DNA from: Candidatus Uhrbacteria bacterium RIFCSPHIGHO2_02_FULL_46_47
GTDB taxonomy: Bacteria; Patescibacteriota; Patescibacteriia; GWA2-47-26
DNA length: 64,000 nt
Assembly: GCA_001790815.1 (NCBI GenBank)
Contig: MGDU01000010.1
Span: 2,621-66,620, forward strand
Reading direction: 5' to 3'
The stretch's first letter is position 1. Every line of letters starts with the position of its first letter. A program made the translations under genes and the position numbers. Below the pieces are notes generated by a model, which was given only the letters and a program-made list of their open reading frames with translations, searched no databases and had not been told where the DNA came from. Positions 11,086 to 57,738 of the stretch are shown here, in pieces.

Positions 11086-11133
11086 GTAGTCGCAGGTCTT
11101 TAGCCTGCGCGCAACCTAAAGAGTTGCGGCTAC
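11086..11133. repeat. REP/BIME-like element, family E (GTAG..hairpin(TCTTTAG loop)..hairpin(CTAAAGA loop)..CTAC)
   Basis: gtagtcGCAGGtctttagCCTGCgcGCAACctaaagaGTTGCggctac: two stem-loops with the conserved loop and different stems. Confidence 0.7.
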
Positions 11134-11153
11134 CTAATTATAATAAATAAAAT

Positions 11154-11549
11154 ATGGGAAATGCAAAACGTTTTGTTCCCCTAATTCTTTTTTTGCTACT
11201 TGTGGCCTCTGTCGCAGGAAATGCAATGCTGTATAAAAAGCTCAGAGTCCTTAAGCAAAATCCGCAAATGCTTGCACAAGAAGAAAATAAAGCCCTAGTT
11301 GCTAAAGTAGGCCAATTAATTGTTTTGCCTGAAGGCGAGGAGCCAACTGTTGCAACGGTAAATGAGCCGGAAAAACTCAAAGATCAGCCATTTTTCGCAA
11401 ATGCAAAACAAGGCGACAAGGTCTTGATTTACACTAAAGCGAAAAAAGCAATTTTGTATCGCACGGCGGAAAATAAGATTGTTGAAGTCGCGCCGGTAAA
11501 TATTGGTGAACAGCCAGCCGTAAGCGCGCCAGAGGCGCCTAAGGAATAG
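11154..11549 (+). CDS. small membrane-anchored protein, hypothetical
   Basis: 131 aa with N-terminal TM (FVPLILFLLLVASVAG); bracketed by inverted family-E elements. Confidence 0.5.
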   Translation: MGNAKRFVPLILFLLLVASVAGNAMLYKKLRVLKQNPQMLAQEENKALVAKVGQLIVLPEGEEPTVATVNEPEKLKDQPFFANAKQGDKVLIYTKAKKAILYRTAENKIVEVAPVNIGEQPAVSAPEAPKE

Positions 11550-11552
11550 TTT

Positions 11553-11607
11553 GTAGCCGCAACTCTTTAGGTTGCGCAATTGACGCCGGCTAAAGACCGG
11601 CGACTAC
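11553..11607. repeat. REP/BIME-like element, family E (inverted relative to the 11086 copy)
   Basis: gtagccGCAACtctttagGTTGCgcaattgacGCCGGctaaagaCCGGCgactac. Confidence 0.7.
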
Positions 11608-11620
11608 TAGATAACACGAA

Positions 11621-11666
11621 CCCTCACCCTCAATCCCTCTCCCCGAGGGAGAGGAAAGGTGAGGGG
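11621..11666. repeat. GC-rich palindromic element, family C (intergenic copy)
   Basis: ccctcaccctcaatccctctccccgagggagaggaaaggtgagggg: nested inverted repeats. Confidence 0.7.
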
Positions 11667-11718
11667 CACGCAAAGGGTATGGCAAAAACCATGCCTTTTT
11701 GGTATGATAAGGGAATGT

Positions 11719-13026
11719 ATGAAATTACAATGTTCGCGTTCGTTCGTCCTTCTGTTCGTGTTCTTTAGTGTGTTTGCGCCTTTGGCGCAAGCAACGGATT
11801 TTACCAGCACGAATTTTATTTTGCGTGACCCAGTTGTGACAATTGAAGGAGGGTATTCAAGCTCAACAAATTTCCAATTTTTCAGCAGCACTGGTCAGAC
11901 CGCGATCGGAGAGACTACCAGCACAAGCTTTACCCAGCGCTCCGGATTTTTATATTTTCCAACAGCAACAACGCCGGCCATTGCCGCAACAGCCGGAAAT
12001 GGTGAAGTGAGTTTGAGCTGGAGCGCGGCGACTGGCTCGCTTGGTAATGTGACAAATTATCGCGTTGGCACCGCAACAGTTTCCGGCGGACCGTATACTT
12101 ATGAGTCAGTTGGAAATGTTTTGACTTTTACCAAAACAGGACTTACTAATGGCACAACATATTATTTTGTCGTGCAAGCGCAGGCCGCAACTGAAACCGT
12201 GGCAACTTCCGCGCAGGTCTCAGCCACGCCTGCCGCGCCCGCGCCGTCCGGTGGAGGCGGAAGCGCTGTTATTGCAACATCTGCTCCCTCTGGCGCAAGT
12301 GTAATGCTTTCCGGGTGGGCCTATCCATTAAGCAATGTCGTGGTACTCAAAGACGCGCAAGTGGCAATGCGCACCATTGCCGGTCCGGACGCGAAGTTTA
12401 CTGTTGCGGTCTCCGGGCTTTCCGCGGGAACCTATACATTTTCCGCGTACGCGGAAGATAATATAGGGCGGCGTTCACAATTGTTTAATTTCAGTATTTT
12501 TGCAACACAAAATGCCAGTACGCAAATTGGCGGGATATTTATCGCGCCCAGCATTGCAACCGACAAGGTACATGTCCGCGCGGGCGATGATATTGCCATT
12601 TTTGGGCAAAGCGTTCCCAATGGAGAAATCACTATCGCGGTTAATTCGCCGGAAGAGATTTTTGTAAAAACCGCTTCGGATGGAAATGGCGCGTACTTGT
12701 ACAACTTTGATACTGCGCAACTTACGACAGGGGAACATTTTACCAAATCAAAAGCGCGCCTTAACGGCGAAGTAAGCCCGTTTGGGGTCGCGGTGAGGTT
12801 TGGCGTTGGCAAGGAGAATATTTCTTCAGTTGCCGCGCCATGTCCCAAAACGGCCGATCTTAATAACGATTGCAAGGTGAACTTGATTGATTTTTCAATC
12901 GCGGCGTATTGGTATAAACGCGAGCTCAGTACTGCGTTTGCGGAACTGGAAAAAACGCGCTTGAATGGTGATGGGAAAATTGATTTGGTGGATTTTTCTA
13001 TCATGGCGTTTTATTGGACGGGATGA
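11719..13026 (+). CDS. secreted protein with fibronectin type III-like domain and C-terminal dockerin-like double Ca-binding repeat
   Basis: Signal peptide MKLQCSRSFVLLFVFFSVFAPLAQA. Fn3-like GEVSLSWSAATGS..NGTTYYFVVQAQA. C-terminal DLNNDCKVNLIDFSIAAYW / LNGDGKIDLVDFSIMAFYW matches the type I dockerin duplicated-segment pattern. Start chosen at the Met before the signal peptide (ORF track 11659). Confidence 0.6.
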   Translation: MKLQCSRSFVLLFVFFSVFAPLAQATDFTSTNFILRDPVVTIEGGYSSSTNFQFFSSTGQTAIGETTSTSFTQRSGFLYFPTATTPAIAATAGNGEVSLSWSAATGSLGNVTNYRVGTATVSGGPYTYESVGNVLTFTKTGLTNGTTYYFVVQAQAATETVATSAQVSATPAAPAPSGGGGSAVIATSAPSGASVMLSGWAYPLSNVVVLKDAQVAMRTIAGPDAKFTVAVSGLSAGTYTFSAYAEDNIGRRSQLFNFSIFATQNASTQIGGIFIAPSIATDKVHVRAGDDIAIFGQSVPNGEITIAVNSPEEIFVKTASDGNGAYLYNFDTAQLTTGEHFTKSKARLNGEVSPFGVAVRFGVGKENISSVAAPCPKTADLNNDCKVNLIDFSIAAYWYKRELSTAFAELEKTRLNGDGKIDLVDFSIMAFYWTG

Positions 13027-13028
13027 TT

Positions 13029-13056
13029 GAATGTAAAATGAAAAATGTAAAATTAA
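13029..13056 (+). promoter_or_regulatory. family G element: tandem TGTAAAAT extended -10-like boxes overlapping an MKNVKL start codon
   Basis: gaaTGTAAAATgaaaaaTGTAAAATta; copies at 15334, 20651, 39928, 55365. Confidence 0.45.
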
Positions 13057-13940
13057 AAATTATTGTTGTCCTAATGGTGCTCGCGCCTAATTTTGCGTAC
13101 GGAGCGGAGTTTTATTTTGGCACACAATCAAAAGAAATCGGCGTGGGGCAATTGGGAGAGGTCGGAGTGTTTTTAAATACTGATGATGCGCAGATTAACG
13201 CGATTGAAGGAAAAATTATATTTTCCGATAGTGTGACGGTGAAAGAAATTCGCGAAGGCGGTTCAATGATTAGTTTGTGGGTTGAGAATCCGTCACTGAG
13301 TGATGATGACCCTAATCACTCAGTGACGATCATGTTTAGCGGGATTATCCCCGGCGGCTACACCGGTAATCGCGGATATTTGTTCTCGATAATATTTGAA
13401 AAAACTAAAGTCGGCGATGTGAAAATTGAAGTGAATGATGCGCGCGCATTGCTTAATGACGGGCAGGGGACATCGACTGAAGTACGCGTATCGCCACTCA
13501 CGCTTGCGGTCGTAGAAAAAACTGGGGCGCCGGGATATTTGCCGCCTTATGATAATGAGCCGCCGGAATCATTTGTGCCGGAGATTGCGCAAGATCCGAA
13601 TTTATTTGATGGAAAATGGTTTGTTACATTTGCCACGCAGGATAAAATTTCTGGAATTGATCGTTATGAAATCGCATTTGGTTCACTTGGCAATTTCGTT
13701 CGTGTTGAAAGTCCGTTTGTCTTGCCACTCTGGAAACAGCTGGCTGGTGGAATTGTTAGGATTAAAGCCATTGATCGCGCTTCAAACGTTCGCATTGAAA
13801 CTTTACCAATCGCCATACCTTTGCCCTGGTATGAAGATTATCGGATTTGGGGTATAATCCTAGGAGGAGCTATTATTGTATACCTCATATTTCGTCTATG
13901 GAAGCAAAAACAAATAAAACACACAAAAAAACACGAATAG
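13038..13940 (+). CDS. membrane-anchored protein with cohesin-like domain
   Basis: Signal MKNVKLKIIVVLMVLAPNFAYG. Domain GVGQLGEVGVFLNTDDAQINAIEGKIIFSDSVTVKEI...VKIEVNDARALLNDG fits the cohesin beta-sandwich pattern; C-terminal TM (IWGIILGGAIIVYLIF). Contains the in-frame family D palindrome (PSLSDDDPNHSVT). Confidence 0.5.
   Translation: MKNVKLKIIVVLMVLAPNFAYGAEFYFGTQSKEIGVGQLGEVGVFLNTDDAQINAIEGKIIFSDSVTVKEIREGGSMISLWVENPSLSDDDPNHSVTIMFSGIIPGGYTGNRGYLFSIIFEKTKVGDVKIEVNDARALLNDGQGTSTEVRVSPLTLAVVEKTGAPGYLPPYDNEPPESFVPEIAQDPNLFDGKWFVTFATQDKISGIDRYEIAFGSLGNFVRVESPFVLPLWKQLAGGIVRIKAIDRASNVRIETLPIAIPLPWYEDYRIWGIILGGAIIVYLIFRLWKQKQIKHTKKHE
13290..13328. repeat. palindromic insertion element, family D, in-frame in the cohesin-like gene
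   Basis: ccgtcactgagtgat-gatgaccctaa-atcactcagtgacg. Confidence 0.75.
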
Positions 13941-15331
13941 CAACACGAAAGTACACGAAACTTTTAGTGTTTTTTAGTTTATTACTCGTGCCTTTTAGTG
14001 TAGTAAAAGCGGCGCCGGCAAGTTTGTTTTTATCTCCGGCTTCCGGAACATACGGATTGAACCGTACGTTTTCGGTTGATATTGTAGTGGCAACTCCGGG
14101 TGAATCCATGAACGCAGTCCAAGGTACAGCGCGGTTTGACGCGGATCGCTTGGAAGTAGTTTCCTTAAATAAGGACGGATCAATTTTAAGTCTTTGGATT
14201 CAGGAGCCCAGGTTTTCTAATCGTGAGGGGACTGTAACATTTGAAGGGATACGGTTAAATCCCGGTTATCAAGGTACGGCGGGGAAATTGCTTACGGTCG
14301 TATTTAAAACCAGAGCGCTGGGAACCGCGAAACTGAATTTTTCATCCGCGTCAGTTTTGGCAAATGACGGCAAGGCAACCAATATCATTACGGCGCTGGG
14401 AACCGCGGCGTATCAAATCGTAGTGCCGGAGCTTGCGCCGGAGGAAATTGACGCGACAGAAGGCGTTTTGCGCGAAACTAATATTATTTCTCCCACCCAT
14501 AGTAATCCGGAAAAATGGTACGCGCTTCGGGCGGTTCAATTTGAATGGACGTTGCCTTCTTCGATTGATGGCGCATCCTTTGTCGTCAATCAAGAGCCGG
14601 ATACTACTGTGCGAGAAAAATCGTTCGGACGATTATCAAGTTATACCTACGAGGTTGCCGAGGACGGCCTATGGTATTTTCACCTGCGCCTGCGCAATCC
14701 CAAGGGATGGGGACTGACCAGCCATTTCAAATTCCAGGTTGATACCGTTGCGCCCGAGCCATTTACTATCTCGTTTATTGATGGCAGAGAAACTGATCTG
14801 CCCCAGCCGCGGATTTTTTTCTTTGCCAATGATGCAGTTTCGGGAATTGAATATTATGAGGTAAAGGTAGATGAGGGCAGTTTTTTCAGAGTCGCCCCTG
14901 AGGAGCTTATGAGCGCGCCAGTATCTCTTCCCTCGCTTTCTCCCGGCATACATACAGCGTTTGTGTATGCCTATGATCGCGCTGGCAATGTTAGGAGTTC
15001 GGCTGAAGAATTTTCCGTTGTGGCGCCAAAAGCAACGCGTTCGGTTTTGCGCATTGGAAAAGTACAGGTGCCTTATTTTGCGGTTGTCGCAATCTTGATT
15101 GGATTTGCCCTTGCGCTTATTTTCATTTTGTTGCTAGCCTGGTGGCAATTCTTACGTTTTCGCAAAAAACTCAAAAAAGAAGCGCATGAGGTGGAAGAGG
15201 TTCTGCATAAATCTCTTGATCGGATACGCGAGGATGCCGGTAGAAGGTCTGGTAAGATTAAAAAAGACGCTGATGACGCGGAAAAGGCGGTGCGGAAAGA
15301 GATTGAGGATATTGAAAAGGAGGTGAAGTGA
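13898..15331 (+). CDS. membrane-anchored protein with cohesin-like domain (paralog of 13038 gene) and charged C-terminal tail
   Basis: Signal-anchor KLLVFFSLLLVPFSVVKA. Domain FSVDIVVATPGESMNAVQGTARFDADRLEVVSLNKDG..GKLLTVVFKTRALGTAKLNF; C-terminal TM (VVAILIGFALALIFILLLAWW) then a Lys/Glu-rich tail. Start uncertain (ORF track 13847; overlaps the upstream gene). Confidence 0.5.
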   Translation: MEAKTNKTHKKTRIATRKYTKLLVFFSLLLVPFSVVKAAPASLFLSPASGTYGLNRTFSVDIVVATPGESMNAVQGTARFDADRLEVVSLNKDGSILSLWIQEPRFSNREGTVTFEGIRLNPGYQGTAGKLLTVVFKTRALGTAKLNFSSASVLANDGKATNIITALGTAAYQIVVPELAPEEIDATEGVLRETNIISPTHSNPEKWYALRAVQFEWTLPSSIDGASFVVNQEPDTTVREKSFGRLSSYTYEVAEDGLWYFHLRLRNPKGWGLTSHFKFQVDTVAPEPFTISFIDGRETDLPQPRIFFFANDAVSGIEYYEVKVDEGSFFRVAPEELMSAPVSLPSLSPGIHTAFVYAYDRAGNVRSSAEEFSVVAPKATRSVLRIGKVQVPYFAVVAILIGFALALIFILLLAWWQFLRFRKKLKKEAHEVEEVLHKSLDRIREDAGRRSGKIKKDADDAEKAVRKEIEDIEKEVK

Positions 15332-15333
15332 CG

Positions 15334-15367
15334 GAATGTAAAATTAAAAATGTAAAATGAAAAATGA
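15334..15367 (+). promoter_or_regulatory. family G element (tandem TGTAAAAT boxes) at the murF start
   Basis: ggaaTGTAAAATtaaaaaTGTAAAATgaaaaatg; supplies the MKNE.. start. Confidence 0.45.
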
Positions 15368-16763
15368 GTGTATGAAGGAAGTAGTAATATCTATCCTCCA
15401 GGTATTTGCCAAGCTCATTTTGCAAAAATATAAACCCACTATTGTCGCTATAACCGGTTCGGTTGGAAAAACGTCAACCAAAGAGGCAATTTACGCGGTT
15501 CTTGCTTCAAAATTTTCCGTACGCGCGACGCCCAGAAATTATAATAATGAATTGGGCGTACCGCTGACTATAATTGGAGCAGGACTTAGCCCTGAGCGTG
15601 AAAGGGCTAAGTCCTTGTTTCTTGGAAAGTCACCTTTTCGCTGGTGTAGAGTATTTTGCAGAGCATTGTGGCAAATTATCATGCCTGCGCGCTATCCGGC
15701 AATATTAGTGCTGGAGATGGGAGCAGATCGGCCAAAAGACATACAAAAACTCGTAAAACTTGCTCCGCCAAAAATTGGGGTGGTAACTGCTATTGCGCCA
15801 GTGCATACTGAATTTTTTGGCGATGTGGAAAAAGTGGCGCGTGAAAAAAGGCGTCTTGTTGAAGCAGTGCCAAAGCAGGGGACAGTGGTATTAAATATAG
15901 ATGATGAAATGGTGCGTGAGTTTGCAAAGCATGCAAAAAGTACGGTTGTTGGTTATGGAATTGAGAGCAATGAGGCAGAAGTAAGGGCAGTTGAGGTGCA
16001 TGATGATATTGAAATAGGGGGAAGCCGAACCTCCGATGCTTCGGAGGTTCGGCTTCCAGACATTGAATTAGGCAGTATTCATTTCAAAATTATAACTGAC
16101 GGCTCTGCCGTGCCCGTGCATTTGCCTAGTGTGTTGGGCCACGCCCACGTGTACGCGGCGCTTGCCGCTTGCGCAGTGGGACGCGCGTTTGGAATGCACA
16201 TGGTTGAAATTTCCCGTGCGCTGTTAAATTATGCTCCGCCTCCCGGCCGCATGCGAATTATTGCTGGCATTAAAAATACGGTGATCATTGACGATACTTA
16301 CAATGCTTCTCCGCGGGCAACTGTAGCCGCCCTTGAAACACTTGGAGGGCTAAGCCCTTTTTCAAAATCAGGGCTTAGCCCTGTGCGTTACGCCGTGCTT
16401 GGCGATATGCTGGAGTTAGGGCCTTATACAGAATCCGGCCATCGCGAAGTGGGCCGCGTTGCGGCGCAAAATGCCGATGTAGTTATTGGCGTGGGTGTCA
16501 GTGCGCAATGGCTTGTTGATGAGGCAAATAAAACCCGTCTAAATTTACCCTCTGCTGAAGGAAATTTTGTCGGGCATTTGCATACCCATGACGAAGCCGA
16601 ACATTTTTTGCAGGAGCGAATACGGCCGGGCGATGTGATACTGATCAAAGGATCTCAAAGCATGCGCATGGAGAAGCTCGTCAAAGGTCTAATGGCTGAA
16701 CCTTTGCGCGCGGATGAATTATTATGCCGACAAGAAAAAGAATGGTTGACACGACAACACTAA
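15357..16763 (+). CDS. murF: Mur ligase family protein, MurF-like (UDP-MurNAc-pentapeptide synthetase)
   Basis: P-loop ITGSVGKTSTKE and MurF-type NNELGVPLT motif. The usual N-terminal domain is missing, and it carries two in-frame family B palindromes (GLSPERERAKSL; GGLSPFSKSGLSP). Confidence 0.65.
   Translation: MKNECMKEVVISILQVFAKLILQKYKPTIVAITGSVGKTSTKEAIYAVLASKFSVRATPRNYNNELGVPLTIIGAGLSPERERAKSLFLGKSPFRWCRVFCRALWQIIMPARYPAILVLEMGADRPKDIQKLVKLAPPKIGVVTAIAPVHTEFFGDVEKVAREKRRLVEAVPKQGTVVLNIDDEMVREFAKHAKSTVVGYGIESNEAEVRAVEVHDDIEIGGSRTSDASEVRLPDIELGSIHFKIITDGSAVPVHLPSVLGHAHVYAALAACAVGRAFGMHMVEISRALLNYAPPPGRMRIIAGIKNTVIIDDTYNASPRATVAALETLGGLSPFSKSGLSPVRYAVLGDMLELGPYTESGHREVGRVAAQNADVVIGVGVSAQWLVDEANKTRLNLPSAEGNFVGHLHTHDEAEHFLQERIRPGDVILIKGSQSMRMEKLVKGLMAEPLRADELLCRQEKEWLTRQH
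15581..15615. repeat. family B palindrome in-frame in murF
   Basis: aggacttagccct-gagcgtgaa-agggctaagtcct (12-bp perfect inverted repeat). Confidence 0.75.
16347..16383. repeat. family B palindrome pair in-frame in murF
   Basis: gggctaagccc..agggcttagccctg. Confidence 0.75.
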
Positions 16764-16795
16764 GTGATGTACAACACGCAGTGTTGTACGTGTTA

Positions 16796-16870
16796 GGCCC
16801 TATCGTCTAGTCCGGTCTAGGACATCTGCTTCTCAGGCAGAAGACCGGGGTTCAAATCCCCGTGGGGCTA
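16796..16870 (+). tRNA. tRNA-Glu (anticodon CUC)
   Basis: 75 nt: acceptor GGCCCTA/TGGGGCT (2 G-U), D-arm GTCTAG..GAC, anticodon stem TCTGC/GCAGA with loop TTCTCAG (U33, CTC, A37), T-arm CGGGG-TTCAAAT-CCCCG, discriminator A. CCA is not encoded. Confidence 0.75.
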
Positions 16871-16879
16871 TGGTATAAT
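16871..16879 (+). promoter_or_regulatory. extended -10 promoter (TGgTATAAT) immediately after the tRNA, for the 16909 gene
   Basis: Perfect TGnTATAAT 30 nt upstream of the ATG at 16909. Confidence 0.5.
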
Positions 16880-16908
16880 TAAACTATAATTCAATAATTA
16901 CTAATTTT

Positions 16909-30081: not shown

Positions 30082-31017
30082 TTAAAGCCATTTTTTCTTT
30101 TTGAATATCCCAATTACCACAAGCGTGCCAAGCATCATCAGCCCAAGAATCGCCCAAAAATCATACAGTTTGCCAATAAGCGGTGTTGAATATGCAGGAA
30201 TAATGAAAAGATTGGAAAATAAAGTCAACCCCAAAAGAATAATGGAAAAAATTGTAAGCGTTTTCATGATATCATTCAGACGGAGCGAAAGCAGGGTAGA
30301 GTGAGTATCTTGCACTGCATCAATGGCGCTATTATATGTTTCAAGGTGATCCCAGATTTCTTTGGTGTGATCAATTAGACGATCATAGGTATGCAAAGAA
30401 TCGTCAGACACTTTCATGTAATGTGGTAAAAGATTTATGAGGCGTCGCAAGAGATCACGATGCGGCTGCATGGCCTTGCGAAAGGTGACAACATTATTTT
30501 TAAGGCGCAAGATTTCATAGACAGTTTCTTTGGTTCTGCCATGGAGTACTTTTGTGTGCAAAGTATCGATGTCATTTGAAATATGAAAGATCATGGGGAA
30601 GCAGGCATCAAAAAGCTCGTCAAGAAGCTGGGAAATAAAACGCGTTGGATCTGCCATAAGATCGTCGCGATGATCCGGTTTTAGCTCCAGGAGCTGGAAG
30701 AAATTTTTAAGGTCCATAAAACTATTTTCATGAACAGTAATAACCTTGTTTTTGAAAATGAAAAAATCAATTTCTTGCTGTTCTATTTCGCGAGTTTTTT
30801 GGTTAAAAAGCGGGAAAACAAAGATTGCAAAAATATACTTGCGATCAAGCCGCGGCACTACTTTGGGGCGCTGGATAGGCGGCAAACAATCCTTAAGATC
30901 AAGCGGGTGCAAATTATAGGCCTTTTCCAAGTATTGCAGTTCTTCCCCGCTCGTTTTAACCGCATTTATCCATTGATAGCGTTTTCCTTTCAGGGTGTGG
31001 ATAGTTGATGGCGTCAT
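30082..31017 (-). CDS. CorA/ZntB-like divalent cation transporter (divergent, no canonical GMN)
   Basis: About 250-aa cytoplasmic N-terminal domain plus two C-terminal TM helices (LTIFSIILLGLTLF..; WAILGLMMLGTLVVIGIF) and a KKKW tail, which is the CorA topology. The GMN motif is not seen. Confidence 0.45.
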   Translation of the reverse strand: MTPSTIHTLKGKRYQWINAVKTSGEELQYLEKAYNLHPLDLKDCLPPIQRPKVVPRLDRKYIFAIFVFPLFNQKTREIEQQEIDFFIFKNKVITVHENSFMDLKNFFQLLELKPDHRDDLMADPTRFISQLLDELFDACFPMIFHISNDIDTLHTKVLHGRTKETVYEILRLKNNVVTFRKAMQPHRDLLRRLINLLPHYMKVSDDSLHTYDRLIDHTKEIWDHLETYNSAIDAVQDTHSTLLSLRLNDIMKTLTIFSIILLGLTLFSNLFIIPAYSTPLIGKLYDFWAILGLMMLGTLVVIGIFKKKKWL

Positions 31018-31066: not shown

Positions 31067-31175
31067 GTAGTCGCCGCTCTTTAGGCGGCGCGCAGGCTAA
31101 AGACCTGCGGCTACATATGGCACAAGTAGTCGCCGCTCTTTAGGCGGCGCGCAGGCTAAAGACCTGCGGCTACAT
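31067..31175. repeat. two tandem 60-bp copies of the family E REP/BIME-like element
   Basis: gtagtcGCCGCtctttagGCGGCgcGCAGGctaaagaCCTGCggctacatatggcacaag x2; the second copy ends 2 nt before the ATG at 31176. Confidence 0.8.
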
Positions 31176-31652
31176 ATGGCACAAGAAGAAAAACCAAAAA
31201 TAGTCCCAACTGAACAACCGCCGGAAATAGAAAAAATTCCTGAAGCGCCAAAAGAGGCGCCTGTCCTTGAGGTTCCAATGGAACGTCCGCCTGCGGAAAA
31301 AGAATTGCCGGCAAAAGCGCCGCCGCCAATTGCGCCGGCAGTGTTGCCGCCGGCAGTACCAGCAGATCCAGTGCTTAAGCAAATTGAAACAATCCTTGCG
31401 GAGGATTTGGAAGAGGTTTATGCGCAACTTCCGCCAGAGCTTAAGCCAAAGTTTAAGGTCAAGGGCGAGGAAGTCGCGAGCGCAATTCGCACTATGATGG
31501 CAACTGCCAAGATTAAAGCGCGCAAAGTATTAAAGCTCATTGCGCAGTGGCTCAAAATTATTCCGGGTGTGAACAAATTTTTTCTGGAACAAGAAGCCGC
31601 GATCAAAGCGCAGAAAATTATGGCTGTCGCGCAGGAGGAGAAGGAAGTATGA
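31176..31652 (+). CDS. Pro/Ala/Glu/Lys-rich protein, hypothetical
   Basis: 158 aa; a low-complexity PEAPKE/PPAV N-terminal half, then a helical C-terminal half. Confidence 0.5.
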   Translation: MAQEEKPKIVPTEQPPEIEKIPEAPKEAPVLEVPMERPPAEKELPAKAPPPIAPAVLPPAVPADPVLKQIETILAEDLEEVYAQLPPELKPKFKVKGEEVASAIRTMMATAKIKARKVLKLIAQWLKIIPGVNKFFLEQEAAIKAQKIMAVAQEEKEV

Positions 31653-31732
31653 TGCCAATATACGAATTTCATGCCAATCTACAAATTGCAAATTCGTATT
31701 TGTAGATTTGAATAAGATTTGTAGATTTGCAT
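31652..31732. repeat. family F intergenic element (ATGCCAATCTACGAATTTCATGCCAATCTACAAAT...ATTTGTAGATTTGAATAAGATTTGTAGATTTGCAT)
   Basis: Contains four TTTGTAGATT/AATCTACAAA half-sites in inverted arrangement. Begins at the stop of the upstream gene and ends 8 nt before the next ATG; copies at 40973 and 48320. Confidence 0.75.
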
Positions 31733-40972: not shown

Positions 40973-41053
40973 ATGCCAATCTACGAATTTCATGCAAATC
41001 TACAAATCGCGAATTTGTATTTGTAGATTTGAATAAGATTTGTAAATTTGCAT
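40973..41053. repeat. family F intergenic element, copy 2 (immediately upstream of murJ)
   Basis: atgccaatctacgaatttcatgcaaatctacaaatcgcgaatttgtatttgtagatttgaataagatttgtaaatttgcat. Confidence 0.75.
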
Positions 41054-46337: not shown

Positions 46338-46458
46338 TGATATAGTATTCAACCATTATGAAACGCAAGACATTTCAGCGTGCCTGGACAGTAGTCGTAA
46401 TCATTATGATTGCGGCGATGATTTTATTTACCATCGTGCCGTATCTGTTCTAGTGAAC

Positions 46459-46481
46459 GCCGGCTAAAGACCGGCGACTAC
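46459..46481. repeat. family E REP-like half element (single hairpin + GACTAC) 8 nt upstream of recJ
   Basis: GCCGGctaaagaCCGGCgactac. Confidence 0.65.
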
Positions 46482-46488
46482 ATTTAAT

Positions 46489-48315
46489 ATGGAAAAGAAT
46501 TGGGTACTTTTGGAAAACGCGCCGGAGGATTGGCAAGGTCAAATGCCAGAGGTGTCTGCTATTTTGCGGCAGATTTTGTGGACTCGTGGATTGCGAACTA
46601 AGGCCGAGGCAGAACAATTTTTACATCCTAGTTTTGAAAAGGATCTGCATGATCCTTTTTTGTTTAAGGACATGGAAAAAACAGTGGCGCGGCTGTTTGC
46701 GGCAATTGAGAAAAAGGAGAAAATTTTTGTGTATGGCGATTATGACGCGGATGGCGTACCGGGCGCGGCTATTTTGAAAACTACCCTGGACGCGCTTGGC
46801 GCGGTTACGGATATTTATATTCCGCATCGCGAAAAAGAAGGATATGGACTAAATAGCGGCGCCATTGCCTATATGGCCGAGCAAAATGGCAAGATAGTGA
46901 TTACTTGCGACTGTGGGATTAGCAATGCGTCAGAAGTGGCTGAGGCGCGCGCAAAAGGAATTGATGTAATCATCACTGACCATCATCGCATACCTGAAAT
47001 AGTACCCAAACCATTTGCAATTTTGCATCCATTAATTCCCGGAGAAAAATATCCGAACAAGTTTTTAACCGGCGGTGGCGTGGCGTATAAGCTGGCGTGC
47101 GCGCTTTTACAAACCGCGCATAACTCCCCCCAACCCCCTCTTACCTTAAGAGGGGGAGAGGATCTTGAAGGATTTGAAAAGTGGTTGTTGGATTTGGTGG
47201 CCATATCAACTGTGGCGGATGTGGGGAAACTTCTGGATGAGAATCGAACGCTTGTAAAATATGGACTTACCGTACTTAACAAAACCCGCCGGCTAGGTTT
47301 GCAAAAACTTATTGAAGCCGCAGGAATAAAGCTGGGTGCGCTAGACACTTATTCAATCGGCTGGCAAATCGCTCCGCGTATCAATGCCGCCGGCCGCATG
47401 GATCATGCCAATGCCGCTTTTCAATTGCTGATGGCCACTGACGCGGAAGAAGCGCAGCGTCTTGCGGCACAGTTGAACGAATCAAATGTGGCGAGACAAA
47501 AGGAAACCGATCGCGCGTTAAAGGAGGCGAGGGAACAAATTATGAAGGGATTACTCTCACCTCAATCCTCTCCCATAAAGGGAGAGGAAGTAACGCAACC
47601 CCCCTCGCACCTTGCGGGAGAGGGTCGGGGTGAGGGGGAATTACCGTACCTCCTTGCCGCGTATAATCCTTCCTGGAATCCCGGAGTGATTGGGTTGGTA
47701 GCTGGACGGCTTATGGAAGAATTTCGGCGGCCGGTACTTATCTGCACGCGCAATGAAGGCGGAAAATTTATGGCCTCGGCACGATCAATTTCAGAATTTA
47801 ATATTATTGAAGCGCTCGCCTCATCAAAAGAATATCTTTTGAAATTTGGCGGGCACCCCAAAGCCGCTGGTTTTTCTGTTGAAAGCGAAGAGAAATGGCA
47901 TGCACTTATTGCGCATTTGCAGGAACTCGCGCACAAAGCGCTCCATGCTGTTGATGTGCGGCCAACGCTCTATATTGACGCGGATCTTATACTTGCGCAA
48001 GTAGATTGGAATTTAGTTTCTGATGTGCAAGCGCTTGAGCCGTGCGGGGAAGGCAATCCGCGTCCGCGGTTTTTAATACATGGCATAACCGTGCTTGGAT
48101 TTGATACTGTAGGAAATGGCGGGAAGCACTTGCGTCTTACGGTTACTGATGAAACGCAAAAGCCGCGCAAAATGATTGGATTTAATTGTGGAAGCTGGTG
48201 CGAGCGGTTAAAAATCGGCGACTTGATTGATGTGGTCGTTGAAGTTGGAGTAAATGAATGGAATGGAAATCGTGATATTGAGATGCGAATTGTGGATTTA
48301 AGATTCCATCAATAA
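46489..48315 (+). CDS. recJ: single-stranded-DNA-specific exonuclease RecJ (DHH family) with two in-frame palindromic insertions
   Basis: VYGDYDADGVPGAAIL, ITDHH (DHH motif), DHHA1 region GGHPKAAG; insertions AHNSPQPPLTLRGGEDLEG and LSPQSSPIKGEEVTQPPSHLAGEGRGEGE. Confidence 0.85.
   Translation: MEKNWVLLENAPEDWQGQMPEVSAILRQILWTRGLRTKAEAEQFLHPSFEKDLHDPFLFKDMEKTVARLFAAIEKKEKIFVYGDYDADGVPGAAILKTTLDALGAVTDIYIPHREKEGYGLNSGAIAYMAEQNGKIVITCDCGISNASEVAEARAKGIDVIITDHHRIPEIVPKPFAILHPLIPGEKYPNKFLTGGGVAYKLACALLQTAHNSPQPPLTLRGGEDLEGFEKWLLDLVAISTVADVGKLLDENRTLVKYGLTVLNKTRRLGLQKLIEAAGIKLGALDTYSIGWQIAPRINAAGRMDHANAAFQLLMATDAEEAQRLAAQLNESNVARQKETDRALKEAREQIMKGLLSPQSSPIKGEEVTQPPSHLAGEGRGEGELPYLLAAYNPSWNPGVIGLVAGRLMEEFRRPVLICTRNEGGKFMASARSISEFNIIEALASSKEYLLKFGGHPKAAGFSVESEEKWHALIAHLQELAHKALHAVDVRPTLYIDADLILAQVDWNLVSDVQALEPCGEGNPRPRFLIHGITVLGFDTVGNGGKHLRLTVTDETQKPRKMIGFNCGSWCERLKIGDLIDVVVEVGVNEWNGNRDIEMRIVDLRFHQ
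47125..47161. repeat. family C-like palindromic element in-frame in recJ (1 of 2)
   Basis: ctccccccaaccccctcttaccttaagagggggagagg. Confidence 0.7.
47556..47638. repeat. family C palindromic element in-frame in recJ (2 of 2)
   Basis: ctcacctcaatcctctcccataaagggagagg...cttgcgggagagggtcggggtgaggggg. Confidence 0.8.
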
Positions 48316-48319: not shown

Positions 48320-48408
48320 ATGCCAATATACGAATTTCATGCCAATCTACAAATAACAAATAATTCATTCGCAATTCGTAGATTAGCATAAGATTTGTAG
48401 ATTTGCAT
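48320..48408. repeat. family F intergenic element, copy 3 (immediately upstream of rnhA)
   Basis: atgccaatatacgaatttcatgccaatctacaaataacaaataattcattcgcaattcgtagattagcataagatttgtagatttgcat. Confidence 0.75.
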
Positions 48409-51182: not shown

Positions 51183-51189
51183 TGAGATA

Positions 51190-51198: not shown

Positions 51199-51216
51199 AC
51201 TGCGAACAAGCAAAGT

Positions 51217-52290: not shown

Positions 52291-52317
52291 GTCTGTAAGA
52301 TCTGTCGCACTTATAAT

Positions 52318-52917: not shown

Positions 52918-52922
52918 TTTAT

Positions 52923-53612
52923 ATGCCCGCATTATTTACAAAGCAGTATAGAATATTAATTCTTGCCTCAGCAATTATCGCGGTTGGAATCGGCGGTTAT
53001 TTTTTCGGTGTGCGGTCAAACATCGCGGAATTTCGCAGTGCCAATGGCGAACTTGCTAAGTTCAAAGAAACGCGCGAAGTCACACAGGAGAAAATTGTAG
53101 AAGCGCGCGCAGTTGCGGCGCAGGCGACCGCCGGCACGCCAGCTGAAATTATTAAACTGCAATCTTTGTTTGTGCGTCAGAGCGAAATCGCGGAGCTGAT
53201 AAATATTATTGGTAACCGCGCGCAGACGGCTCGCTTTCTTCTGACCAATCTTGAAATTAGCACTGAGAAAGCAGAACGTAATGATGCTCGTGCGCTTCAA
53301 ACAGTGCGCGCGCAGGCGCAGCTTAAAGGCGGAGGTTATCGCGAACTTAAAGAGCTTTTGAAGCTTTTAACAGTCGCGGTTCCGCTCCTTGAGGTAAATT
53401 CGTTTACCTTTGATCCCAAAAGCACAACGGTCAGCATCAACTTAAGCGCACAGCGTATTTCGCAAGAGGCGTCTGCTTTAGTTCCTGTGGATACGGCATT
53501 CTTTAGCGACCCACGATTCAAAGCGCTTGGAGCGCCGGTGCTATTGCCTCAAAAAGAGCCAGTGGGACGAGAAAATCCGTTCGCGACATTTGAATCTCAA
53601 AAGAGCCAATAA
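52923..53612 (+). CDS. pilO: type IV pilus assembly protein PilO-like
   Basis: Single TM (ILILASAIIAVGIGGYFFGV) plus coiled coil; position in operon. ATG at 52923 chosen (ORF track TTG 52905). Confidence 0.55.
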   Translation: MPALFTKQYRILILASAIIAVGIGGYFFGVRSNIAEFRSANGELAKFKETREVTQEKIVEARAVAAQATAGTPAEIIKLQSLFVRQSEIAELINIIGNRAQTARFLLTNLEISTEKAERNDARALQTVRAQAQLKGGGYRELKELLKLLTVAVPLLEVNSFTFDPKSTTVSINLSAQRISQEASALVPVDTAFFSDPRFKALGAPVLLPQKEPVGRENPFATFESQKSQ

Positions 53613-53615
53613 GCT

Positions 53616-55364
53616 ATGGCTGTTCAAACTACTTTTAAAAATGAATTTCTTGATTTTTTAGTTAGAGAAAAGGTATTGAGCACAGAAAAAGTCGGTGAGT
53701 TGGAGTCACGTGCTAAACAAGAAGGCAGTACAGTTGAGCAAGTATTGACAAAGGATAGAATTATTTCTGAAGAGGAACTTACTTCAAAAAAGGCAAAATT
53801 TTTCGGTCTTCCCTATATTGATTTGACCGGAATTAAAATTGATCAGGCAACTTTGGGACTTATTCCAAAAGCAGTGGCTGAAAACTATCGTGTAATCGCG
53901 TTTGATCGCGATGCCGCGCAGCTTAATGTTGCGATTTACGATCCTCGCAATTTTCAAGCCATGGCTGCCCTTGATGTGCTGGCCGTGAAAAGTAATCTGC
54001 GCATCAAATATTATCTTACCTCGCTTAGTAGTTTTACCTCCGCAGTAAAGGTATACGCGGAGCTGACAAAAGAGGTCGCGGAGGTTATTGAGGTTGTGCG
54101 CAGAGAAAAGGTACGTGAGGCGCCAAAAGAAGAGGCGGCAGTGCCGGTTGAGGAGGTAATTAAGGGCGCTCCGGTTTCCCGCATCGTTTCAGTTATAATG
54201 CGGCATGCTTATGAAGGAAAGGCCTCCGATATTCATATAGAACCTTATCGCGGTGAGACGCGCGTGCGTTATCGCATTGATGGAGTGCTAAAAACTTCGC
54301 TGGCTCTTCCGGAAGAATTGCATTCCGCAATCGTCTCGCGCGTGAAAGTGCTGGCGAATTTAAAGCTGGATGAGACGCGCATTCCGCAAGACGGCCGCAT
54401 TACCGAGGAGATTGGCGGAAGGCCGATTGATTTTCGCGTTTCAACTTTGCCTCTTCAGGAAGGCAAAGAAAAAGTGGTGATGAGGATTTTGTCCACCGAA
54501 CGCACCCCGACTTTGGAAGAATTGGGATTTCATCCGGAACATATTAAAATCATAGACAGCAACATAAAAAAGCCGCACGGACTTTTGCTTATTTCCGGGC
54601 CAACCGGAGCCGGAAAATCAACCACCCTTTACGCGGTTTTAAGCATGCTTAATCGCGAGGGAATAAATATCATTACTTTGGAAGATCCGATTGAGTATTT
54701 TATTGCCGGCATTAATCAATCGCAAATTCGCCCGGAGGTTGGATATACTTTCGCAACCGGTCTGCGCTCAATTTTGCGGCAAGATCCGAATATAATTATG
54801 GTTGGCGAGATCCGCGACGCGGAAACCGGAGAACTTGCGGTGCATGCCGCGCTTACCGGACATTTGCTTTTGACCACTATTCACACCAACGACGCCCTGG
54901 GGGTAGTGCCGCGGCTGATTGATTTGAAGGCCGAGCCGTTTTTGCTCGCGGCAACATTTAACGTGGCAATCGCGCAGAGACTCGCGCGCAAAATTTGCCC
55001 GGATTGCAAAGGGCCGGCAGAAGTGCCTTTAAATGTGGTAGAACAGATGCGCAGTGAACTGCGCGCTACCCCGACGCGCTTTGTGCCATCTGGGCTTGAC
55101 GTAAATGGTCCCTTGACATTTTATCGTGGTCAAGGATGTCCAAAGTGTGGTACACTTGGATATAAGGGGCGCGTTGCGGTTGCCGAGATTTTGCAGGGAA
55201 CTGTGAATTTGAATCGATTGATTGCGATTGGATTTCCACAGGCCGAAGTTGTCGCGGAAACGCAAAGTCAAGGGATGATTACAATGAAGCAGGACGCGCT
55301 TCTAAAAGCCATTCAAGGATTTACCACTATTGAAGAAGTGATGCGTATTAGCAAGGAACAATAA
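53616..55364 (+). CDS. pilB: type IV pilus assembly ATPase PilB (GspE family)
   Basis: GspE_N domain, Walker A LLISGPTGAGKSTTLYAVL, ITLEDPIEY, Walker B IMVGEIRD, tetracysteine CPDCKG..CPKCG. Confidence 0.9.
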   Translation: MAVQTTFKNEFLDFLVREKVLSTEKVGELESRAKQEGSTVEQVLTKDRIISEEELTSKKAKFFGLPYIDLTGIKIDQATLGLIPKAVAENYRVIAFDRDAAQLNVAIYDPRNFQAMAALDVLAVKSNLRIKYYLTSLSSFTSAVKVYAELTKEVAEVIEVVRREKVREAPKEEAAVPVEEVIKGAPVSRIVSVIMRHAYEGKASDIHIEPYRGETRVRYRIDGVLKTSLALPEELHSAIVSRVKVLANLKLDETRIPQDGRITEEIGGRPIDFRVSTLPLQEGKEKVVMRILSTERTPTLEELGFHPEHIKIIDSNIKKPHGLLLISGPTGAGKSTTLYAVLSMLNREGINIITLEDPIEYFIAGINQSQIRPEVGYTFATGLRSILRQDPNIIMVGEIRDAETGELAVHAALTGHLLLTTIHTNDALGVVPRLIDLKAEPFLLAATFNVAIAQRLARKICPDCKGPAEVPLNVVEQMRSELRATPTRFVPSGLDVNGPLTFYRGQGCPKCGTLGYKGRVAVAEILQGTVNLNRLIAIGFPQAEVVAETQSQGMITMKQDALLKAIQGFTTIEEVMRISKEQ

Positions 55365-55438
55365 GAATGTAAAATGTAGAATGTAAAATGAAAAATGAAA
55401 ACGTAATTTTGCATTTTAAATTTTAAATTTTACATTTA
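55365..55438. promoter_or_regulatory. family G element (TGTAAAAT boxes in both orientations) between pilB and the receiver gene
   Basis: agaaTGTAAAATgtagaaTGTAAAATgaaaaatgaaaacgtaattttgcattttaaATTTTACAtt; contains a decayed MKNENV mini-ORF. Confidence 0.45.
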
Positions 55439-55443
55439 TCCAT

Positions 55444-55836
55444 ATGGCTCAAGGAACAAAAATGAAAATACTTATTGTTGAAGATGATACATTTTTGGCC
55501 GGAATTTACGCTAATAAATTTGAAAAAGAAGGTTTTGAGGTGGCGCTTGCCACTGACGGCGAAATGGCGCTTAAACTGGCGAAAAAGGAAGCGCCGCATA
55601 TAATACTGCTGGATATTCTTTTGCCCAAACTGGATGGTTTTGAAGTCCTGGAAAAATTAAAAAGTGACGCGGGAACAAAAGCTATTCCGGTAATTTTGCT
55701 GACCAATCTTGGACAAAAAGAAGATGTTGATAAAGGGCTGAAACTTGGCGCGGCGGATTATCTTATCAAAGCGCATTTTATGCCTGCCGAAACCGTAGAG
55801 AAAGTAAAGAAAGTTTTGGCCGCATCCGGACGATAA
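55444..55836 (+). CDS. single-domain response regulator (CheY/PilH-like receiver) inside the pilus operon
   Basis: KILIVEDD..D(55)ILLP..T..K REC-domain motifs. Confidence 0.8.
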   Translation: MAQGTKMKILIVEDDTFLAGIYANKFEKEGFEVALATDGEMALKLAKKEAPHIILLDILLPKLDGFEVLEKLKSDAGTKAIPVILLTNLGQKEDVDKGLKLGAADYLIKAHFMPAETVEKVKKVLAASGR

Positions 55837-55846
55837 ATTTTCGCCT

Positions 55847-57043
55847 ATGGCAATATTTCGCTATAGGGCAAAAGACAAATCCGGCCGTATGGCCGTTGGC
55901 CGGGCTGAAGCGCCGAATTTGGCAAGTGCAGAGCAAGCGCTGGAGGATCGCGGCTTGAATATTGTTCTGCTTGAAGAAATCGCGCCGCGCTGGCGCATCC
56001 CCCTTGCCGGACGCGTAACCGCGCGCGATATTGTTATTTTTTCCCGCCAGTTATCCGTATTGACTTCAGCTAATGTTACCTTGGTTCAGGGTTTGCGCAC
56101 TTTGCAGGACCAAACTCCCAATCGCGAACTTGGCAAAATTTTGAAAGAAGTCGCGGATGATGTGGAAGCCGGCACGCGGCTAAGTATCGCGCTTGGCAAG
56201 CATCCGCGGGTTTTTAATCGTTTTTTTGTGAGTATGGTAAAGTCCGGCGAGACCGCTGGCCGGCTTGCTGAAGTATTGAATTTTTTGGCGGATCAAACCG
56301 AGAAAGAATATGATTTGGTTTCCAAGGTGCGCGGCGCCATGCTTTACCCCGCGTTTATCGTAACCGGCATGATTATCATCAGTGTCGTGCTTTTGATTTT
56401 TGTGATTCCGCGGTTGACTTCCGTGCTGTTGGAGTCCGGCGCCACGCTTCCGCTTACCACCCGCATGCTTATTGGCGCGTCGTCATTCATGCGCAATTTT
56501 TGGTGGCTTTTGATTATTTTGATAGTCGGCGCGATTGTATTGTTCCGTTTGGCGCTAAGGCAGTCCGATTTTCGTGAATCCTATGACAAGCTGAAATTGC
56601 GTATACCGATTTTCGGCTCGCTTTTACAAAAAATTTACCTTGCGCGCATGACTCGCAGTTTGCACATTTTGCTTTCCGGTGGCGTGGATGTGGTTGGGTC
56701 TTTGGAGGTGGTGGGGGAGGTGGTTGGCAATGAGTATTACGCGCGGATGATACGCGAAACTCAGCGCGAAGTTGCGGATGGAAATTCCATAAATACCATA
56801 ATTCAACAAAGCTCGCTTGTTCCGGCCATGGTTTCGCAAATGTTGGCAGTAGGCGAGGAAAGCGGTCAGATGACACAAATTCTTGATAAATTAACTTCAT
56901 TTTATACGCGTGAGGTGGATAATGGCGTAACTACGCTGGTGTCCATTATTGAGCCGCTTTTGATGGTGATAATCGGGCTTGGAGTTGGAATGATTGTGGC
57001 TTCTATAATTTTGCCCATGTACAAACTTGCCGGGTCATTTTGA
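55847..57043 (+). CDS. pilC: type IV pilus platform protein PilC (GspF family)
   Basis: Two GspF-type repeats and 3 TM segments (e.g. AFIVTGMIIISVVLLIFVIP); 398 aa. Confidence 0.85.
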   Translation: MAIFRYRAKDKSGRMAVGRAEAPNLASAEQALEDRGLNIVLLEEIAPRWRIPLAGRVTARDIVIFSRQLSVLTSANVTLVQGLRTLQDQTPNRELGKILKEVADDVEAGTRLSIALGKHPRVFNRFFVSMVKSGETAGRLAEVLNFLADQTEKEYDLVSKVRGAMLYPAFIVTGMIIISVVLLIFVIPRLTSVLLESGATLPLTTRMLIGASSFMRNFWWLLIILIVGAIVLFRLALRQSDFRESYDKLKLRIPIFGSLLQKIYLARMTRSLHILLSGGVDVVGSLEVVGEVVGNEYYARMIRETQREVADGNSINTIIQQSSLVPAMVSQMLAVGEESGQMTQILDKLTSFYTREVDNGVTTLVSIIEPLLMVIIGLGVGMIVASIILPMYKLAGSF

Positions 57044-57066
57044 TAGATGACAACACCGAGTCAATC

Positions 57067-57120
57067 GTAGTCGCGGATTTTGTAGTCGACGGCTTTAGCC
57101 GGCGCGCGCGAACTGACGAC
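57067..57120. repeat. degenerate family E REP-like element after pilC
   Basis: gtagtcgcggattttgtagtcgacGGCtttagCCggcgcgcgcgaactgacgac. Confidence 0.5.
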
Positions 57121-57140
57121 TTTGTGCAGTCACAAAAATA

Positions 57141-57149
57141 TGCTATACT
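57141..57149 (+). promoter_or_regulatory. extended -10 promoter (TGcTATACT) 6 nt upstream of the pilin ATG (near-leaderless)
   Basis: TGCTATACTatacctATG. Confidence 0.5.
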
Positions 57150-57155
57150 ATACCT

Positions 57156-57626
57156 ATGTGGATAAGTCGAAATAGAACCGGAAAAGGTTTTACGCTCATT
57201 GAGCTTCTTGTGGTGATTGCGATTATAGGCATATTGACCACTGTGGCCACATTGTCGCTGATTCAGGCACGGCGTCGGGCGCGAGATACCAAACGCGTTT
57301 CCGATATTCAGCAGGTGCGCAACGCGCTGCTCATTTACTCAAATCAGCGGGCAACTTATCCGGCAACTCCTGTTGGCGGCGTCATATTGGGAAGCGGGGA
57401 TGCAAAGTGCCTGGATGATTCTGTTGCAGGATTTAACGTGGTATGCGGCGCTGGCGGAGAACTTGTGATTATGCAAAGGGTTCCTGCTGATATTGTTGGC
57501 GGCGCGAGTTACACATACAGTAAAACCGGAGCGCAGAATTATGCCATCACGTTTACATTGGAAGGAAATGTTGAAAATTTAAGTGGAAATTGTACTGCGA
57601 CAGAAAGTGGAATTACTTGTCCATAA
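57156..57626 (+). CDS. type IV pilin (major pilin candidate 1)
   Basis: Prepilin leader ...GKG|FTLIELLVVIAIIGIL (class III signal, Glu5). Confidence 0.85.
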   Translation: MWISRNRTGKGFTLIELLVVIAIIGILTTVATLSLIQARRRARDTKRVSDIQQVRNALLIYSNQRATYPATPVGGVILGSGDAKCLDDSVAGFNVVCGAGGELVIMQRVPADIVGGASYTYSKTGAQNYAITFTLEGNVENLSGNCTATESGITCP

Positions 57627-57641
57627 AGGTCGAATCAAAGT

Positions 57642-57738
57642 GTAGCCGCCGGTCTTTAGCCGGCGCACTTGCTCAAAGTAGATTGTAGCCGCCGGTCTTT
57701 AGCCGGCGCACTCGCGCAGCTTAAAGCGCTGCGGCTAT
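57642..57738. repeat. family E REP-like cluster: two identical GTAGCCGCCGGTCTTTAGCCGGCGCAC units plus a third hairpin
   Basis: 57642-57668 and 57685-57711 are identical; 57714-57738 is GCGCAGCttaaagcGCTGCGgctat. Confidence 0.75.

Follow-up and report, generated by a model that had tools for sequence, protein, structure and literature searches.

What kind of element are the GTAG-tagged hairpins that recur between the genes of an Uhrbacteria genome, and which enzyme spreads them? The question is raised by a 64-kb stretch of contig MGDU01000010.1 (47.6% G+C) from Candidatus Uhrbacteria bacterium RIFCSPHIGHO2_02_FULL_46_47, a member of the candidate phyla radiation (CPR, or Patescibacteria). This stretch is referred to here as the window, and together with 9 kb upstream and 10 kb downstream it makes up the 83 kb of this genome that the analysis covered. 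The window contains a family of short intergenic repeats, Family E, and, at its start, a Y1 transposase gene (positions 194-904). The original prediction joined the two: the repeats were taken to be probable substrates of that gene, in the manner of the bacterial interspersed mosaic elements (BIMEs) that are built from repetitive extragenic palindromes (REPs) and serviced by REP-associated tyrosine transposases (RayTs). Our analysis leads to a different pairing. Very probably, Family E consists of REP/BIME-type repeats of the Uhrbacteria genome, and its cognate RayT is not the Y1 gene at 194-904.

The Family E unit is a hairpin of 25 nucleotides (nt), GTAG-YC-GC-NNN-TCTTTAG-NNN'-GC-GC, with a 5' GTAG tag, one spacer base and a 6-bp stem, CGCNNN. 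A paired structure of 48 nt had originally been taken as the unit; the pattern is real, but the basic element is the single hairpin, because the single-hairpin pattern GTAGYCGCNNNTCTTTAGNNNGCGC, with up to three mismatches, matches the window 12 times against 0.02 expected (a number equaled in none of 100 shuffles), and solo units exist (46457 and 57642). The loop TCTTTAG by itself has 17 matches in the window against 6 expected. Units start at 11086, 11553, 31067, 31126, 57642 and 57685 on the plus strand, and at 11109, 11583, 31090, 31149, 46457 and 57714 on the minus strand, the last one being degenerate. A covariance model derived from the units recovers exactly these 12, at 34-45 bits, and adds one decayed copy at 57082-57105 (18.1 bits, E 0.011); the census is thus 12 units and one decayed cluster at seven intergenic sites in 64 kb. 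The tag is GTAG in 11 of the 12 units and ATAG in the degenerate unit at 57714. Most units form head-to-head pairs with GTAG...CTAC outermost, and the full arrangement comprises four head-to-head pairs, one more with a degenerate arm, one head-to-tail repeat and one tandem duplication; two of the pairs have spacers of 4-5 nt and lack the common GCGC center. An unbiased GT[AG]G-plus-hairpin scan, together with the covariance model, found no second family of GTAG hairpins in the window, where the 23 leftover matches of that scan are near the shuffle level of 9-21. No Family E units were found in the 19 kb that flank the window.

Family E also occurs in other phyla, and it is there that the units are found beside RayT genes. 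A scan of other genomes, with one genome per species and the stem triplets left free, returned at least 104 stretches with at least 112 units, and the open reading frames (ORFs) of these unit-bearing loci were searched with a fragment of the Escherichia coli TnpA_REP protein recovered from the 4er8 alignment. The fragment matches two ORFs, one of 162 amino acids (aa) in a metagenome-assembled genome (MAG) of the Ignavibacteriae (L088) and one of 161 aa in an Omnitrophota MAG (L003). Both exceed the cutoff of 80 bits set for REP_Tyr_transpos, the NCBIfam equivalog model for REP-associated tyrosine transposases, with 86.4 and 82.7 bits, respectively, and both proteins, of about 160 aa, have the motifs DHxH, WQ (WQKDFYDH) and YxLxNPV. 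Family E units lie within 100 nt of these genes, on both sides in L088 and as a run of four just downstream in L003, which is the classic REPtron layout. The proposal that the units are of the GTAG-tagged REP/BIME kind is supported by this finding of the same unit next to cutoff-passing RayTs in two other phyla.

Homologues of the Family E-flanking RayTs number 641 at E <= 1e-10 and come from many phyla. Five further MAGs were inspected, and in four of them (KSB1, WOR-3, Deltaproteobacteria and Chloroflexota) the RayT homologue has sister REPs on its flanks, for example GTAG-N-CGCAGGC-TTTA-GCCTGCG and GTAG-C-CGCAACC-TTTA-GGTTGCG. Their arms are of the AGG and AAC types known from Family E, their loop is 4 nt long (TTTA or TTCA), and only the bulged T is missing. 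An all-against-all BLAST of the ORFs from the 104 unit-bearing loci listed gave no protein family common across phyla near the units. Searches of the unit-bearing loci by phmmer and hmmsearch with the window's Y1 protein or its profile gave only an unrelated subclass-2.1-like gene in Loosdrechtia, 4 kb from a unit.

The stems vary between copies and stay complementary. All four stems listed in the original prediction are present in the window (GCAGG/CCTGC, GCCGC/GCGGC, GCCGG/CCGGC and GCAAC/GTTGC), with GCAGC/GCTGC in the degenerate unit; all 12 units are fully complementary, with five triplets (AGG, AAC, CGG, CGC and AGC) and no G-T intermediates. It had also been proposed that covariation be examined over a wider sample of copies, and there the proposal holds. 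Among the matches listed from other genomes, 97 of 112 units are perfectly complementary at the three free pairs, where chance is 1/64, and 15 of 112 are imperfect copies with a single mismatch. Computed on 24 distinct sequences, the covariation score is 0.331 against 0.112 +/- 0.031 in shuffles, none of 500 of which equal it, a shuffle-based statistic that is inflated by relatedness among the copies; with the partners slid by 1-3 columns as a control, the score is 0.07 or less. All three free stem pairs have changes on both sides, and pairing holds in 91.7% of cells. That the hairpin is real is supported by the slid control and by the same stem variants recurring in unrelated genomes.

As evidence of compensatory change, however, this pattern had been overstated. 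The stems do covary, but stem variants are a described property of REPs (Di Nocera et al. 2013, PMC3733652), and the AGG and AAC types are long-established subfamilies that spread in company, as do Y and Z in the BIMEs of E. coli. Since these two stem types recur across phyla, they give no evidence of recent compensatory change within the Uhrbacteria genome. A systematic avoidance of like arms in pairs was also considered; all four independent window pairs have unlike arms, but the chance p is about 0.34 and no claim is made.

Predicted folds of single-stranded DNA (ssDNA) have z scores of -3.7 to -4.9 for the solo unit and the intact pairs, and of -1.5 for the pair with a degenerate arm. The pair at 11086..11133 is predicted to fold into a Y shape (-14 kcal/mol, z -4.0), the pair at 11553..11607 into two separate hairpins (-13.9 kcal/mol, z -4.0), and the solo unit at 46457..46481 has a predicted fold of -8.4 kcal/mol (z -4.9). 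In abutting pairs the predicted Y combines an outer GTAG/CTAC stem with two hairpins, at z of about -4; because the two arms carry different stem triplets, the ssDNA pair folds in this way and not as one long hairpin. The RNA folds have z scores of -2.5 to -4.2, and one pair is predicted as a long hairpin that competes with the Y fold. The sister REPs differ essentially by one missing T, and the apex of Family E is therefore better described as a TTYA tetraloop with a C-G cap and a bulged T than as a 7-nt loop.

The distribution of the unit in other genomes is broad. Among the matches listed, MAGs assigned to about ten phyla carry the identical 25-mer more than once, and its hosts include Planctomycetota (Limnoglobus, Loosdrechtia), Omnitrophota, Bacteroidota, Ignavibacteriota, Chloroflexota, Armatimonadota, Proteobacteria (including Gammaproteobacteria) and others. 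About 88% of these copies are intergenic, and their orientation relative to neighboring genes (23 same/same, 18 opposite/opposite, 17 and 13 mixed) has no clear bias. The stem types AGG, AAC and ACG recur in distant phyla. The 25-mer is often embedded in longer repeats that differ from lineage to lineage. Limnoglobus MAGs (L002-L104, for example L012 and L016) have dozens of copies of a conserved repeat, about 100 nt long, that opens with the Family E hairpin as its 5' module and goes on ...GGGGGCAAATACCCTAAAAAACCAGTCGTGGCGAGTCTTCGAGACGCGACGC. Other flanks, unrelated to this one and among them 91-bp tandem arrays in L028, adjoin the hairpin in Loosdrechtia, in Omnitrophota and in Bacteroidota ES1.bin.100. 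Viral contigs scanned for the unit gave 0 matches, and a metagenome scan for the full 48-nt tight doublet also gave 0 matches; the abutting-pair architecture may be rare outside the Uhrbacteria lineage, or the lineage may be missing from the scanned metagenome collection. A literature search for the unit sequence itself gave no match.

Closer to home, no Family E units were found in about 67 kb read from three Uhrbacteria relatives with RecJ identities of 67-72%. In one of these relatives (L190, 67% RecJ identity), the orthologous site upstream of recJ measures 7 nt and has no unit, versus 35 nt with a unit in the window, as would fit a mobile element that was gained or lost. Where RecJ is identical, in three strains, the DNA is 99.98-100% identical over the 5.8-kb recJ region compared, and thus offers no polymorphism. 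The behavior of Family E is mobile-like: there is a decayed copy, an exact tandem duplication, unit-free relatives (including the recJ site) and no clear orientation bias.

By analogy with characterized RayT/REP pairs, a Family E unit would fold on transiently single-stranded DNA, and an HUH/Tyr RayT of about 160 aa (DHxH, WQKDFYDH, YxLxNPV) would recognize its apex and GTAG foot, cut nearby and transfer the strand; the strand transfer would copy or move the REP. Only copies that fold and have an intact apex would stay active, which would explain a fixed GTAG and loop combined with a stem triplet that is swappable but complementary. This loop-fixed, stem-free pattern is the expected signature of short REPs, because published RayT assays and REP subfamilies predict it. 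In particular, RayT activity on the short perfect REPs of Stenotrophomonas maltophilia and Marinomonas depends on GTAG and on one particular base of the loop; swaps that leave the stem complementary do not harm it, and a stem mismatch abolishes it (Corneloup et al. 2021, PMC8266576). Most GTAG REP families hold subfamilies with alternative complementary stem residues, and head-to-head dimers are their commonest arrangement (Di Nocera et al. 2013, PMC3733652); short REPs keep a distance of 1-2 nt between tag and stem, and their foot and stem add up to 10-13 nt (Quentin et al. 2018, PMC6006769). On the strength of this analogy, we infer RayT action on Family E within the Uhrbacteria genome. Side effects at the RNA level are possible, with leader or inter-cistronic hairpins affecting mRNA stability or translation initiation.

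Several points weigh against reading Family E as active REPs of this genome. No RayT of the cognate clade was found in the window, in the 9 kb upstream or in the 10 kb downstream (83 kb), and Family E activity in the Uhrbacteria genome is therefore unproven; a RayT encoded in another part of the genome may serve the units, or else these may be orphans. Patescibacteria are named in 0 of the best 120 of the 641 cognate-RayT homologues. Start codons lie 2-22 nt from several units, a closeness that could stem from a role in the host and not from neutral insertion. The relatives compared, at 72% RecJ identity or less, are too diverged for clean empty sites, and there is no direct evidence of transposition. 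The inflation of the covariation statistic by relatedness belongs here as well.

The reading in which the units are BIME-like substrates of the RAYT-like gene at 194-904 starts from its presence in the same window: the gene has a Y1_Tnp domain (Pfam E 5.9e-11; about 236 aa), there is no second Y1 gene in the 83 kb examined, and the GTAG tag is used by many RayTs. We nevertheless regard it as very improbable, and largely refuted by context. On REP_Tyr_transpos the protein reaches 46.8 bits, below the cutoff of 80; it has 21% identity to the Family E-flanking RayTs and is without their WQ motif. Its motifs NHFH, FQ and YIHLNP match subclass 2.1 (TIRYT-like), and no GTAG REPs or REP-like flanks are found next to subclass 2.1 genes (Quentin et al. 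2018, PMC6006769). Family E comes no closer to the gene than 10 kb. The gene is bracketed by a different palindrome, GGAAGCTSAGCTTCC (174-188, 909-923 and 933-947), and is interrupted by two in-frame copies of it (356-370 and 382-396) in the variable linker upstream of the HUH motif. This gene belongs to a very large family in Patescibacteria, with more than 7,800 homologues, and no Family E unit was found at 80 metagenome loci with such homologues (L108-L187, 307 kb). An own short palindrome lies on both flanks of the homologue in 51 of 76 usable loci, and in 31 of the 76 a copy is also present inside the gene, about 150-190 nt from its start; these palindromes are locus-specific (for example GAGGTCSGACCTC, GAAGTCSGACTTC and CACGGGTTGAACCCGTG). 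Since the gene is of a different class and has its own palindrome, it is probably not the enzyme that spreads Family E, and this part of the original prediction is not supported.

A host-level explanation without any transposase would make the units structured RNAs under selection, that is, leader or inter-cistronic hairpins for mRNA stability or translation. The units that lie 2-22 nt upstream of start codons, the promoter-like site just upstream of the 11086 pair and the stable RNA folds with their z scores all speak for it, and REPs in E. coli do influence mRNA decay (background in PMC3733652). It is improbable all the same: the units have no match in Rfam (at gathering thresholds the sole match in the window is a tRNA, 16796-16870), the 112 copies listed have no clear orientation bias relative to neighboring genes, and units are absent at orthologous sites of relatives while decayed copies exist. 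The 25-mer, moreover, sits in unrelated longer repeats of other phyla and flanks RayT genes, and no T-run follows the hairpins, nor was a terminator-like site called in the three element regions scanned. Shine-Dalgarno sequences are missing from most window genes, both near units and away from them (about one ORF in four has a Shine-Dalgarno-like motif), and many ORFs have a TGnTATAAT-like box 5-15 nt before the ATG (for example 1026, 48882, 51217, 57156 and 58323), which suggests that leaderless or very short-leader mRNAs may be common in the Uhrbacteria genome; the closeness of a unit to a start codon is therefore not special in itself. The stem complementarity, finally, might be a mutational by-product, with intrastrand template switching copying one arm onto the other and no folding requirement. 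All 12 window stems are perfect, without G-T intermediates, and quasi-palindrome self-correction is an established mutational mechanism. This account can hardly be right, since it accounts neither for the constancy of the GTAG tag and the asymmetric loop, nor for the recurrence of a small set of stem types (AGG, AAC and ACG) in distant phyla, nor for the physical association with RayT genes; single-mismatch copies exist elsewhere (the 15 noted above), and for related REPs the dependence of RayT on stem pairing has already been demonstrated in vitro (PMC8266576).

Other candidates were rejected as well. An intrinsic terminator does not agree with the absence of terminator-like sites in the three element regions scanned and of T-runs. 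A promoter reading finds no consistent placement relative to -10-like boxes. A CRISPR array does not agree with units that are mostly inverted pairs at scattered intergenic sites without regular spacing. An anticodon-arm mimic (reverse-strand loop CUAAAGA/CUGAAGA) was set aside in view of the lack of clear orientation bias, the RayT flanking and the 4-nt TTTA/TTCA loop of the sister REPs.

A bolder combination is unlikely. In it, Family E would be orphan REPs in a roughly 1-Mb CPR genome, either with a host role or cross-mobilized by the resident subclass-2.1-type Y1, and in addition the REP and its RayT clade would have remained near-unchanged over about ten phyla. The host role, if true, could for example be that of hairpins directly before the starts of genes without a Shine-Dalgarno sequence. 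The second part, if true, would mean repeated inter-phylum transfer of a whole REPtron and not the usual fast, lineage-specific co-evolution.

Taken as REP/BIME-type repeats, the Family E units can be compared with several known systems. They share with the GTAG REPs and BIMEs (PMC3733652; E. coli REP/BIME, S. maltophilia SMAG) the 5' GTAG tag, a short GC-rich hairpin of about 25 nt and an extragenic location; the occurrence as solo units, head-to-head dimers and clusters with tandem amplification; and subfamilies distinguished by complementary stem residues, with dimer arms from different subfamilies (compare the Y and Z REPs of E. coli). They differ in the apex, TCTTYAG, which exceeds in both length and conservation the loops of 2-3 nt usual in most GTAG families described so far, in window dimer arms that abut or overlap by 2 nt, and in a host that is a CPR bacterium. 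The literature searched holds no report of REPs in CPR bacteria, and the Family E motif is not in the main text or the supplements searched of PMC3733652.

The short perfect-palindrome REPtrons (subclass 2.5, PMC6006769; group 3 RayT, PMC8266576) are also similar, with a tag 1-2 nt from the stem; foot plus stem measure 11 nt in Family E. The Family E-flanking RayTs resemble those of subclass 2.5 in their length of about 160 aa and in the motifs DHxH, WQ and Y...NP, and may belong to that subclass. The conservation of Family E, with GTAG and loop fixed and the stem swappable, matches the results of SELEX and mutagenesis for short-REP RayTs (PMC8266576). In contrast to subclass 2.5, the Y motif is Y[IVL]LxNP and not YI[VI]ANP, and the hosts are Ignavibacteriota, Omnitrophota, WOR-3, KSB1 and others, whereas those of subclass 2.5 are xanthomonads and pseudomonads.

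Head-to-head pairs with GTAG...CTAC outermost, one of which folds as a long hairpin in RNA, also recall REPINs. In the work of Bertels and Rainey, REPINs are reportedly two inverted REPs that replicate as one hairpin, with classic spacers of tens of nt. Family E is unlike them in its spacer of 0-5 nt and in arms whose stem triplets differ in every window pair.

The Y1 gene at 194-904 has its own relation to known systems. It is like subclass 2.1 TnpAY1/TIRYT in its motifs (NHFH/FQ/YIHLNP), in its length of about 236 aa and in flanking repeats that are unrelated to GTAG REPs. It is unlike them in that the window gene and most CPR homologues are flanked by short, perfect, lineage-specific palindromes, with one copy in frame inside. 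In-frame REP insertions are known for subclass 2.4 tnpA genes (PMC6006769). A single-sequence search of solved structures with the window Y1 protein gave no relevant match. A further pair of GGAAGCTSAGCTTCC palindromes, at 62245-62279, lies inside the uninterrupted ORF 61740-63830 (NAD-dependent DNA ligase by Pfam); the repeat seems to have inserted in frame into this replication/repair gene, a tendency that Di Nocera et al. (PMC3733652) also noted for intragenic REPs.

The individual sites of Family E are as follows. The head-to-head pair at 11086..11133 is made up of unit 11086-11110 (plus strand, AGG/CCT) and unit 11109-11133 (minus strand, AAC/GTT), with 43.4 and 42.5 bits and the central GC in common; it lies between ORF 10688-10969 and ORF 11154-11549, with the promoter-like site at 11043-11071, 15 nt upstream. 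The pair at 11553..11607, which begins 4 nt past the stop of ORF 11154-11549, joins unit 11553-11577 (plus strand, AAC/GTT) and unit 11583-11607 (minus strand, CGG/CCG) across a 5-nt spacer. The divergent intergenic region between corA (30082-31017, minus strand) and ORF 31176-31652 contains, within 31067..31185, two identical head-to-head pairs (31067-31114 and 31126-31173) with arms CGC/GCG and AGG/CCT. The tandem duplication predicted here is exact over 31067-31185, with a period of 59 bp, 2.0 copies and 100% identity, and it also copies ATATGGCACAA, including the ATG of ORF 31176. The duplicated ATG opens a short ORF at 31117-31143 (MAQVVAAL), which stops at a TAG in the loop of the REP, before the true start of ORF 31176.

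The solo unit at 46457..46481 (minus strand, stem CGG/CCG, 37.8 bits) has recJ, which starts at 46489, on one side and on the other a 31-aa ORF located downstream of lepA. The decayed cluster at 57068..57105 (plus strand), upstream of the pilin ORF 57156-57626, consists of a truncated GTAGTCGCGGA followed by a degenerate GTAGTCGACGG-CTTTAG-CCGGCGC, with one loop base lost and one stem mismatch in the degenerate unit. The cluster at 57642..57738 contains unit 57642-57666 (plus strand, CGG), an 18-nt spacer, unit 57685-57709 (plus strand, CGG), a 4-nt spacer and unit 57714-57738 (minus strand), which is degenerate (ATAG..GCTTTAA.., stem AGC/GCT). The ORFs that flank this cluster carry the N_methyl pilin motif, in agreement with the location between pilus genes that had been predicted. 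The sites right before start codons were also correctly placed: the distance from unit end to start codon is 20 nt for ATG 11154, 2 nt for ATG 31176 and 7 nt for recJ 46489, and it is 22 nt for ATG 57761.

Two other features of the window were observed. A 20-nt motif, TAAGATTTGTARATTTGCAT, has four copies against 0.02 expected, at 31713-31732, 41034-41053 and 48389-48408 on the plus strand and at 40992-41011 on the minus strand; the three plus-strand copies end 5-9 nt before the starts of ORFs 31740, 41058 and 48417. This motif may represent a promoter or operator that the genes have in common, or else one more small repeat family. ORF 1026-10649, of 3,207 aa, has no Pfam or NCBIfam match in the searches made and contains two internal segments of 726 bp (3634-4357 and 5728-6451) that are 82% identical to each other.

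The tempting pairing of a repeat with its nearest transposase is thus corrected, and the window is seen to hold two independent systems: a GTAG REP family whose cognate RayT would be encoded elsewhere or lost, and a CPR-wide Y1 family with short palindromes of its own. A CPR bacterium is thereby added to the hosts of GTAG REPs, and the cognate RayT clade is identified in other phyla. For annotation, the unusual intergenic hairpins and the 59-bp duplication that copies a start codon would be marks of repeat-element activity and not dedicated regulators. One REP/RayT pair, with nearly the same hairpin, occurs in MAGs assigned to many phyla, which provides a natural data set for the published rule that recognition of short REPs goes by GTAG and the loop and not by the sequence of the stem.

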